The notes under the pieces were generated by a model. It was not told where the DNA came from, did no database searches, and saw only the letters and a program-made list of their open reading frames with translations. The position numbers and the translations under genes were made by a program. From Pseudomonas phage Cline, in sequence record PQ571160.1: a DNA stretch of 37,265 nt, one strand, 5' to 3'. The first letter of the stretch is position 1. Every line of letters begins with the position of its first letter. Below, in pieces: positions 18,262 through 19,039 of this stretch.

Positions 18262-18282
18262 GGGAAATGAATTCGGACAAGC

Positions 18283-18326
18283 GGCACATTGTGCCTATTG
18301 CGCATTAGGCACAATGTGCCTAATCT
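18283..18326 (+). promoter_or_regulatory. Promoter of the anti-CRISPR island (TTGCGC, 17-bp spacer, TAATCT), overlapped by two palindromic operator half-sites.
   Basis: GGCACATTGTGCCTA (18283..18297) and its exact reverse complement TAGGCACAATGTGCC (18306..18320) flank and fill the -35/spacer. -10 TAATCT at 18321..18326. SD AAGGAGAG at 18361..18368. Confidence 0.6.
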
Positions 18327-18373
18327 AGCGTCATGCCAGCCACAACGGCGAGGCGAACCCAAGGAGAGACACC

Positions 18374-18664
18374 ATGACTAAGACCGCACAAATGATCGCT
18401 CAGCAGCACAAAGATACTGTCGCAGCGTGCGAAGCCGCCGAAGCCATCGCTATCGCTAAAGATCAGGTATGGGATGGCGAGGGCTATACCAAGTACACGT
18501 TCGACGACAACAGCGTCCTGATCCAGTCGGGCACTACCCAGTACGCGATGGATGCCGACGACGCAGACAGCATCAAAGGCTATGCGGACTGGCTGGACGA
18601 CGAAGCTCGCTCCGCCGAAGCGTCGGAGATCGAGCGTCTGCTTGAATCGGTCGAGGAGGAGTGA
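18374..18664 (+). CDS. acrIF2: Highly acidic small protein. Putative anti-CRISPR of the type I-F DNA-mimic class (AcrIF2-like).
   Basis: 96 aa from 18374, or 90 aa from the internal ATG at 18392. About 26% D+E and a C-terminal EEE run. Sequence and length match my recollection of AcrIF2 (90 aa) from D3112-like phages. Location between Mu-G and the protease is the canonical acr site of this phage group. Confidence 0.65.
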   Translation: MTKTAQMIAQQHKDTVAACEAAEAIAIAKDQVWDGEGYTKYTFDDNSVLIQSGTTQYAMDADDADSIKGYADWLDDEARSAEASEIERLLESVEEE

Positions 18665-18669
18665 AAGTC

Positions 18670-18828
18670 ATGAGCACCCAGCACACATACGAACAAATCG
18701 CTGAAGACTTCCGCCTGTGGGGCGAGTACATGGACCCCAACGCAGAAATGACCGAAGAGGAATTCCAGGCCCTCTCCACCGAGGAGAAGGTCGCCATGCA
18801 AGTCGAGGCATTCGGTGCTGAAGCCTGA
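18670..18828 (+). CDS. acrIE4: 52-aa acidic protein. Putative type I-E anti-CRISPR (AcrIE4-like).
   Basis: ORF found by hand (below the 60-aa cutoff of the ORF track): MSTQHTYEQIAEDFRLWGEYMDPNAEMTEEEFQALSTEEKVAMQVEAFGAEA. Size and sequence resemble AcrIE4 as I recall it. Confidence 0.55.
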   Translation: MSTQHTYEQIAEDFRLWGEYMDPNAEMTEEEFQALSTEEKVAMQVEAFGAEA

Positions 18829-19039
18829 CGCCTCCAACCACAATCCAGACCCGCGCTACCTGCGCGGGCTGCTCAAGAAAGCTGGCATCAGCCAGCGGCG
18901 CGCAGCCGAGCTGCTCGGCCTCAGTGACAGGGTGATGCGCTATTACCTGAGCGAGGACGTCAAGGAGGGCTACCGTCCCGCGCCGTATACCGTCCAGTTC
19001 GCCCTGGAGTGCCTGGCGAGCGACCCGCCATCTGCGTGA
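18815..19039 (+). CDS. aca1: Anti-CRISPR-associated HTH repressor (Aca1-like).
   Basis: 74 aa with a GTG start overlapping the upstream stop. HTH LLKKAGISQRRAAELLGLSDRVMRYYLS. Last gene of the island, as Aca1 is in related phages. Confidence 0.7.
   Translation: MLKPDASNHNPDPRYLRGLLKKAGISQRRAAELLGLSDRVMRYYLSEDVKEGYRPAPYTVQFALECLASDPPSA

Follow-up and report, generated by a model that had tools for sequence, protein, structure and literature searches.

The window, that is, the whole stretch of 37,265 nucleotides analyzed here (Pseudomonas phage Cline, PQ571160.1), belongs to a D3112-like (Casadabanvirus) transposable phage of P. aeruginosa. Between its homologues of the Mu head genes G and I lies a compact accessory island composed of a regulatory region and three genes, acrIF2, acrIE4 and aca1. 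The features of the locus are the following:

17794..18261, plus strand: left flank, a Mu-G-like virion morphogenesis gene of 155 aa (Pfam PF05069 Phage_tail_S, E = 2e-25)
18262..19056, plus strand: acr-aca1 accessory island of 795 bp, with lower GC, missing in MP38
18279..18299, no strand: IR1, predicted upstream Aca1 operator, AAGCGGCACATTGTGCCTATT (20/21 against JBD30 IR1, AAGCGGCACACTGTGCCTATT; PMC8633003)
18298..18303, plus strand: putative -35 element TTGCGC, between IR1 and IR2 (direct reading; TTG invariant in 7 loci)
18304..18324, no strand: IR2, predicted repressing Aca1 operator, ATTAGGCACAATGTGCCTAAT (exact 21/21 match to JBD30 IR2; PMC8633003)
18321..18326, plus strand: putative -10 element TAATCT, 17 nt from the -35 (direct reading; TAATCT or TAATAT in 7 loci)
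18335..18354, plus strand: 5'-UTR RNA hairpin GCCAGCCACAACGGCGAGGC, candidate Aca1 RNA-binding motif (two 3-bp stems with 1-2 unpaired bases between them)
18374..18664, plus strand: acrIF2, 96 aa (96/96 identical to PDB 5YHR, 'Anti-CRISPR protein 30')
18670..18828, plus strand: acrIE4, 52 aa, Y5H variant (51/52 identical to D3112 gp31, the founding AcrIE4)
18815..19039, plus strand: aca1, 74 aa, GTG start (69/72 identical to JBD30 Aca1, PDB 7C0G and 7FA3; E = 1e-43 to 7C0G)
19057..19258, plus strand: native G-I intergenic spacer, outside the island (90.4% identical to the MP38 stretch directly 3' of its G stop)
19259..20365, plus strand: right flank, a Mu-I-like head maturation protease/scaffold gene (Pfam PF10123 Mu-like_Pro, E = 3e-102)

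The genes surrounding the island are homologues of Mu F, G and I according to Pfam, and the annotation of D3112 orf29 as 'similar to phage Mu protein G' supports the G-like nature of the left flank. The left edge of the island is the stop codon of this gene. The right edge is fixed at 19056 by phage MP38, in which the site is observed empty, its G stop being immediately adjacent to the homologue of position 19057 of the window. Thus, the island spans 18262-19056 instead of the 778 bp proposed in an earlier note on this DNA, which had correctly recognized its lower GC (55-58% at 18200-18800 versus 64-70% in the flanking head genes). The same note described the head genes as otherwise tightly coupled. 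This holds upstream, where portal/F and F/G have stop/start overlaps at 16508 and 17794, but not at the G-I junction, which was never tightly coupled since a native spacer (19057-19258, about 200 bp) separates the two genes whether or not the island is present. This spacer carries two tandem copies of AACCCCGTTAG and an inverted repeat with 10-bp arms inside a longer predicted hairpin, and the folding of 19040-19258 was not significant (z = -1.26).

The comparison of seven loci revealed a single operon layout, placed between the head genes G and I: a conserved promoter at the 5' end is followed by acr genes that vary from locus to locus and, at the 3' end, by aca1, as described for Casadabanvirus phages (PMC3993853). 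This cassette structure corroborates the anti-CRISPR/aca1 architecture that had been proposed for this position in Mu-like phages. A search against Rfam (18200-19300, E up to 1) returned only two meaningless matches to miRNA models, the Aca1 RNA motif not being part of Rfam 15, and no report of a hammerhead ribozyme in these phages was found in the literature. The terminator scan detected no intrinsic terminator after aca1, only chance-level minus-strand matches inside ORFs; this lack of a terminator is consistent with the transcription reported to continue into the head genes.

The ORF list and translations place the three genes on the plus strand at the coordinates first assigned to them, and the comparison with Acr and Aca families, suggested in the earlier note as a check on its own recognition of AcrIF2, AcrIE4 and Aca1, yielded a match for each. 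ORF1 is identical to D3112 gp30 and matches Pfam PF25704 (AcrF2) with 199.8 bits over a cut-off of 27. An internal ATG at 18392 would give the 90-aa product used in older annotations; the start at 18374 is favored by an AAGGAG Shine-Dalgarno sequence at 18361-18366 and by the conservation of the ATG position across loci. The length of 90-96 aa first given is right, and the accompanying content of about 26% Asp+Glu applies to the 90-aa form (25.6%) but drops to 24.0% in the 96-aa protein. Structures of AcrIF2 are available (PDB 5YHR, 5UZ9 and 6B47). The protein, of identical sequence, binds the Csy complex at Cas8f/Cas7f.6 (PDB 5UZ9, 6B47; review PMC5859409), where it lies between the thumb of Cas7f.6 and the hook of Cas8f and denies access to dsDNA (PMC5859409). 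[quoted passage not shown] The blocking function attributed to it previously is therefore sound, and the label of DNA mimic is disputed, as Guo et al. contest a true DNA-mimic status (review PMC5859409).

The second gene encodes a similarly acidic protein (25.0% Asp+Glu) that matches Pfam PF25703 with 135.6 bits (cut-off 27) and the AcrIE4 N-terminal domain of AcrIE4-F7 (PDB 7VZM) with E = 5e-19, and it is identical over 52/52 residues to the protein of phage GEC_PNG14. [quoted passage not shown] The acidic and aromatic residues in contact with the PAM site of Cas8e were mapped in AcrIE4-F7 as E19, Y20, D22, D30 and E31; this mechanism was demonstrated on the 69%-identical fusion domain and not on native AcrIE4 (PMC8887544). 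The window protein keeps E19, Y20, D22 and E31, and has E at position 30. The Y5H variant is thus a predicted type I-E inhibitor.

The third gene, aca1, overlaps acrIE4 by 14 nt and has a GAGG Shine-Dalgarno sequence 6 nt upstream of its GTG. Its similarity to JBD30 Aca1 (gp36) covers the HTH and dimerization region. All the DNA-contact residues defined for Aca1 (PMC8633003) are kept, namely, S42, R44, V45, R47, Y48, Y49 and R59 in JBD30 numbering, which correspond to S37, R39, V40, R42, Y43, Y44 and R54 in the 74-aa protein. Its score against Pfam HTH_24 (17.4 bits) lies below the cut-off of 21.9, and the published family assignment of Aca1 is likewise based on a weak HTH_24 match (PMC9410906, PMC3993853). 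The N-terminus varies with the upstream acr gene, reading MKPDAS, VKPDAS or MSRMKPDAS in other phages. Since repression of the acr promoter by Aca1 was shown experimentally (PMC8633003), the window protein is most readily interpreted as the HTH autorepressor of this promoter. The repressor feedback suggested earlier from the gene arrangement agrees with experiments on this operon family (PMC8633003, PMC9410906).

Upstream of acrIF2, two palindrome cores, GGCACATTGTGCC at 18283-18295 and GGCACAATGTGCC at 18308-18320, are the only ones of their kind within the 37-kb window, where shuffled sequences gave a mean of 0.18 sites and never two. IR1 was recovered by the inverted-repeat search and is conserved in the 7 loci, and the 21/21 match of IR2 has a chance expectation of 0. 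The JBD30 IR2 used for this comparison is the 21-bp ITC site, and the crystallized 19-bp IR2 oligo has the same core (PMC8633003); JBD30 IR1 reportedly competes with IR2 by titrating Aca1. Both palindromes are identified, by this similarity, as the Aca1 operators. IR2 covers all 17 nt between the -35 and -10 hexamers and extends into the latter.

The claim that the island has its own sigma-70 promoter is upheld by homology to the JBD30 promoter, but not by consensus. A consensus scan of 17800-19500 found no sigma-70 promoter, and the best hexamers (TTGCGC-17 nt-TAATCT) agree with the consensus at 6/12 positions. The placement of the promoter thus rests on the JBD30 homology and on conservation, as the promoter and 5' UTR are conserved over seven loci carrying different acr genes. 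From these comparisons we infer the exact -35 and -10 hexamers and the transcription start; the -35 assignment, with 3/6 to consensus and a negative scan, is tentative.

Aca1 has also been described as binding RNA. The published motif is an inverted repeat of ~20 nt located just 3' of the transcription start and ending ~20 nt before the acr ATG; Aca1 binds the JBD30 5' UTR with a KD of about 61 nM, the sequence having been used in EMSA, and the discoverers of the Aca1-bound hairpin saw no translational silencing (PMC13551039). The hairpin at 18335-18354 fits this description, is the centroid structure of the 5'-UTR fold and has the same sequence in JBD30. Its sequence is invariant among the loci compared and hence lacks a covariation signal, and it is no more stable than shuffled sequence (z = -0.78), so that its support comes from published work, thermodynamics providing none.

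Taken together, the locus is almost certainly the known canonical anti-CRISPR operon acrIF2–acrIE4–aca1 of D3112-like P. aeruginosa Mu-like phages. The identity of every component and operator was observed in the comparisons, and no substantive evidence was found against this reading. The steps of the mechanism proposed for it have been demonstrated in published work on the same or nearly the same components. Upon infection, the dedicated promoter would fire early and produce one mRNA of acrIF2, acrIE4 and aca1. [quoted passage not shown] As Aca1 builds up, it would place dimers on the IR2 palindrome and shut off the promoter, which would spare the downstream head genes excessive read-through transcription. 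IR1 would serve as a second, upstream site competing for Aca1, and the 5'-UTR hairpin as a third Aca1 ligand. The window copy is presumed to be active in the same way.

Small ORFs beside an HTH gene are also a common toxin-antitoxin layout, and Aca1 structurally resembles the HTH antitoxins HigA2 and MqsA (PMC8633003, PMC9410906), which would allow a generic 'moron' or toxin-antitoxin-like module unrelated to CRISPR, with the HTH protein as an antitoxin-type regulator. However, ORF1 is identical and ORF2 near-identical to proteins for which inhibition of type I-F and type I-E CRISPR-Cas was demonstrated experimentally, there are solved structures of AcrIF2 bound to the Csy complex, and repression of the acr promoter by Aca1 is documented (PMC8633003). 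We regard such a module as practically inconceivable, and it was rejected on the identity to characterized proteins and on the published plaque assays and complex structures of identical proteins. It is also important to consider whether this is a known acr operon in which one component is inactive or altered, either AcrIE4 through Y5H or Aca1 through its short GTG-initiated N-terminus and S69. The differences exist, since the window has H5 where AcrIE4 of D3112 has Y5 and departs from D3112 at two Aca1 residues, and its Aca1 N-terminus is 5 aa shorter than that of JBD30. On the contrary, all ORFs are intact, the isolated phage GEC_PNG14 encodes the same AcrIE4 variant, and residue 5 falls outside the mapped Cas8e contacts (E19, Y20, D22, D30 and E31). 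Furthermore, S69 of Aca1 is found in LESphi4 and MP29 as well, and the naturally variable N-terminus lies outside the region covered by the structure, residues 21-79 (PMC9410906). Altered function of a component is therefore very improbable.

Slightly less remote, though still improbable, is that small features of the window copy (Y5H, the 14-nt overlap with its GTG, or the hairpin) have a functional consequence not described so far. The Y5H AcrIE4 might shift potency or specificity toward variant Cas8e proteins, and the 14-nt acrIE4/aca1 overlap with the GTG start might tune the Acr:Aca1 ratio via translational coupling. Such effects, if true, would leave the identity of the locus as the acrIF2–acrIE4–aca1 operon unchanged.

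The presence of both a type I-F and a type I-E inhibitor had been taken as pointing to a host with both CRISPR-Cas types. This does not follow, because nine different combinations of I-E and I-F acr genes occur among related phages (PMC3993853), so that dual cargo mirrors how CRISPR types vary from one P. aeruginosa strain to another and is no proof of both types in the host of this phage. As a discovery, the locus has little weight: every gene, both operators and the 5'-UTR RNA motif are already published, 131 Pseudomonas phage records match it, and near-identical loci occur in >100 deposited phage genomes. Its value is one of annotation, as it marks the window as a transposable phage of the D3112 kind that is equipped to counter both type I-F and type I-E CRISPR-Cas, which is relevant for host-range prediction, the screening of phage-therapy candidates and CRISPR-based editing in lysogens.

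Among known systems, the reference is orf30-orf31-aca1 of D3112 (NC_005178, 18797-19591), from which the founding AcrIF2 and AcrIE4 come and which shares with the window the gene order, the position between G and I, the promoter, IR1, IR2, the 5' UTR and an identical AcrIF2. Both sequences are 97.8% identical over 1.2 kb, with 28 nucleotide differences; besides H5 in place of Y5 in AcrIE4, the window protein Aca1 carries S37 and S69 where that of D3112 has G and N, respectively, and in the D3112 record aca1 is wrongly annotated as an 'orf32' of 34 aa. The closest loci are those of GEC_PNG14, Nox and vB_Pae_LMQSRe25-1, 99.5% identical to the window over 18100-19300. GEC_PNG14, the only one of the three compared directly, has identical AcrIF2 and AcrIE4 (H5) and an aca1 annotated with the same GTG start, and it differs by six nucleotides and one Aca1 residue (S69 in the window, N in GEC_PNG14). 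Outside this locus, the window is mosaic and identical to no single record, with a best match of 96.4% over 91%.

The acrIF1-aca1 operon of JBD30, the experimental model of Aca1 regulation, has the same insertion site, promoter architecture, IR2 (identical), IR1 (20/21), 5'-UTR hairpin (identical) and Aca1 (69/72), but carries acrIF1 in place of acrIF2 and acrIE4, and its Aca1 has a longer N-terminus with an ATG start (MRFPGVKT...). In MP29, the same locus lacks acrIE4, which illustrates the cassette behavior. The AcrIE4-F7 fusion of Pseudomonas citronellolis (PDB 7VZM) is homologous to ORF2 in its N-terminal 52 residues, with conserved acidic Cas8e binders, whereas AcrIE4 of the window stands alone, without the AcrIF7 domain, at an identity of about 70%. 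Finally, BUCT566 (NC_074664), a phage of 49 kb that encodes an integrase and is not Mu-like, has an acrIF2-aca1 locus in which the same 5'-UTR hairpin and an acrIF2 with 95.7% nucleotide identity precede an aca1 homologue, but this locus lies at another genomic site, with a different promoter sequence and without acrIE4, and the recognition helix of its Aca1 is divergent (SWPGFRNYL versus SDRVMRYYL in the window).

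By every sequence-based criterion tested, the locus between the Mu G-like and Mu I-like head genes belongs to the AcrIF2, AcrIE4, and Aca1 families, and its architecture is the defining one of the Casadabanvirus acr-aca1 operon. The earlier note, which had called 18262-19039 an anti-CRISPR locus, is supported in its interpretation, with three small caveats regarding the DNA-mimic wording, the inference of a host with both CRISPR types, and a promoter that is weak by consensus.

Features of the acr-aca1 locus and its flanks (window positions)
16508-17794, Mu F homologue (Pfam)
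17794-18261, Mu G homologue (Pfam)
18279-18299, IR1 21-mer, one central mismatch to the published JBD30 IR1
18298-18303, putative -35 TTGCGC, best assignment
18304-18324, IR2 21-mer ATTAGGCACAATGTGCCTAAT, exact match to the JBD30 IR2 DNA used for ITC with Aca1 (PMC8633003)
18321-18326, putative -10 TAATCT, best assignment, 17-nt spacer from the -35
18335-18354, 5'-UTR hairpin GCCAGCCACAACGGCGAGGC, centroid fold of the leader
18374-18664, plus strand, ORF1 (acrIF2), 96 aa, or 90 aa via an internal ATG at 18392
18670-18828, plus strand, ORF2 (acrIE4), 52 aa
18815-19039, plus strand, ORF3 (aca1), 74 aa, GTG start
19259-20365, Mu I protease homologue (Pfam)

All three ORFs lie where the earlier note had placed them, on the plus strand; ORF2 and ORF3 overlap by 14 nt, with a GAGG Shine-Dalgarno 6 nt 5' of the ORF3 GTG. 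The description of two small acidic proteins was borne out by Asp+Glu contents of 24.0% (96 aa) or 25.6% (90 aa) for ORF1 and 25.0% for ORF2. Likewise, the island is lower in GC (55-58% over 18200-18800 versus 64-70% in the adjoining head genes), and the upstream head genes are tightly coupled, as stated, with stop and start codons overlapping at both the portal/F and F/G junctions.

The names proposed for the proteins also hold. In a comparison with solved-structure sequences, the ORF1 protein matched PDB 5YHR ("Anti-CRISPR protein 30") at 96/96 residues and had the same sequence as the AcrF2 chains in two cryo-EM structures of the Csy complex (5UZ9 and 6B47); Pfam returned PF25704 (AcrF2) at 199.8 bits, and direct comparison found no differences from gp30 of phage D3112, the founding AcrIF2. 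ORF2 matched the N-terminal AcrIE4 domain of AcrIE4-F7 (7VZM, E = 5e-19) and PF25703 (135.6 bits), a family founded on D3112 "anti-CRISPR protein 31," that is, AcrIE4. A single substitution, Y5H, separates it from D3112 gp31, and none separates it from the GEC_PNG14 protein. Pfam labels this family "AcrF31," despite its being a type I-E inhibitor. The ORF3 protein is identical to JBD30 Aca1 (7C0G, 7FA3) at 69/72 residues (E = 1e-43) and differs from D3112 Aca1 at two.

The operators point in the same direction. Upstream lies a closely related pair of palindromes (core GGCACATTGTGCC at 18283-18295, core GGCACAATGTGCC at 18308-18320), the only sites of this type in the whole 37-kb window; among shuffled sequences the mean was 0.18 sites, and none contained two. 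The core of ATTAGGCACAATGTGCCTAAT is also that of the crystallized 19-bp IR2 oligonucleotide (PMC8633003). According to that study and work cited there, repression is mediated by IR2, while IR1, for which Aca1 has a similar affinity, titrates Aca1 off IR2. The Aca1 residues found there to contact DNA by mutagenesis or structure (R44, V45, R47, Y48, R59, S42, and Y49) are all retained in the window Aca1.

Seven loci that differ in cargo were aligned between the G stop and the first acr ATG: JBD30 (acrIF1), LESphi4 (three acr genes), H70 and Zilla (one small gene apiece), MP29 (acrIF2 alone), and D3112 and the window (acrIF2 and acrIE4). The coding cargo varies while the 5' region stays, with IR1, a TTG(C/T)G block, IR2, TAAT(C/A)T, a 27-nt leader, an AAGGA Shine-Dalgarno, and the ATG kept in all seven. 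By homology the island does have a sigma70 promoter of its own, as claimed, yet one that goes undetected by consensus: the scan reported none at the acr upstream region, and the hexamers together reach only 6/12. The exact hexamers, the transcription start, and the activity of this copy are predicted.

According to a 2026 paper (PMC13551039), the 5'-UTR of acr-aca1 operons contains a hairpin of about 20 nt, just 3' of the transcription start, whose end precedes the acr ATG by about 20 nt; its lower and upper stems are 3 bp each, with at most two unpaired bases between them. The centroid fold of the window leader has exactly this shape, and the hairpin sequence is the same in JBD30. The stability of this fold does not exceed that of shuffled sequence (z = -0.78). 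Aca1 binds the JBD30 leader with a KD of about 61 nM, and the authors saw no translational silencing (PMC13551039).

The identity of all operon parts and the cassette context are established here, and the mechanism is drawn from literature on identical or near-identical proteins. AcrIF2, lodged between the Cas7f.6 thumb and the Cas8f hook, displaces the hook and overlaps the site at which dsDNA binds (PMC5859409). Its acidic surface has been compared to duplex DNA, although Guo et al. dispute the "DNA mimic" label (PMC5859409). AcrIE4, as the N-terminal domain of AcrIE4-F7, binds P. aeruginosa Cas8e at the PAM-recognition lysines K176, K183, and K357 through E19, Y20, D22, D30, and E31 (PMC8887544); the window protein retains all of these but D30, where it has E. 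Through IR2, Aca1 represses the acr promoter, and strong constitutive transcription from this promoter without repression harms the phage (PMC8633003). Inhibitors of types I-F and I-E are both present, but dual cargo is no proof that both CRISPR types occur in a single host.

MP38 offers an empty site, in which the G stop is directly followed by sequence 90% identical to the window from 19057 onward. This puts the island at 18262-19056 (795 bp) and makes the 202 bp at 19057-19258 the native G-I spacer; the left edge proposed earlier stands, and the right edge moves out by 17 bp. This spacer holds a perfect tandem of AACCCCGTTAG (x2, 19117-19138) and a hairpin with inverted-repeat arms at 19077-19086 and 19116-19125, both of which occur in the acr-less MP38 and could be a late-gene regulatory element. 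The spacer fold has no significant stability (z = -1.26), and the spacer has no match in Rfam.

Two observations concern other parts of the record. A full-length type II hammerhead ribozyme with an intact catalytic core lies on the plus strand at 8840-8911 (Rfam RF02276, E = 3e-14; 67.3 bits, where the gathering score is 37). It sits in the early/middle region, directly 3' of the stop of ORF 8524-8841 and close to a GemA-like gene. Matches to the 701 bp around it (8500-9200) occur in 119 Pseudomonas Mu-like phage records, and our literature search yielded no publication that connects hammerheads with these phages. In addition, the first 285 bases are not the phage left end, which begins near 286: bases 1-80 correspond to the very right end of related phages, with 100% identity to the final 80 nt of JD18, and bases 76-285, which encode a type II/IV secretion ATPase fragment (Pfam T2SSE, E = 4e-24), are probably host DNA. 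It looks as though Mu-like virion DNA with packaged host flanks was joined or permuted when the record was assembled.

Taken whole, the window is a Casadabanvirus mosaic that none of the records covers in full; for the first 25 kb, the best match reaches 96.4% over 91% of the length. Searched as DNA against 50,697 phage records, the locus matched 131, all but one named Pseudomonas phages. GEC_PNG14, Nox, and vB_Pae_LMQSRe25-1 are 99.5% identical to the window over 18100-19300, and the D3112 locus is 97.8% identical. Near-identical loci have already been deposited, some with annotation. In the RefSeq entries for D3112 (NC_005178) and MP29, the only feature annotated within aca1 is a 34-aa "orf32"; D3112 has an intact GTG-initiated ORF of the full 74 aa (2216-2440, L001 numbering), and the same frame runs on to its stop in MP29 (~861-1079, L007 numbering).

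MP29 has the same locus minus the ~160-bp acrIE4 gene, which illustrates the gene-by-gene cassette exchange described by Pawluk et al.; they counted nine ways in which these phages combine I-E and I-F acr genes (PMC3993853). The phage BUCT566 (NC_074664) is not Mu-like; its genome is 49 kb long and encodes an integrase. At 1120-1744 (L008 numbering) it carries acrIF2 with 95.7% nucleotide identity to the window and the same 5'-UTR hairpin, whereas its aca1 homologue has a divergent recognition helix, and its promoter and genomic site are both unlike those of the window; its homology starts at window position 18332, about the expected transcript start.
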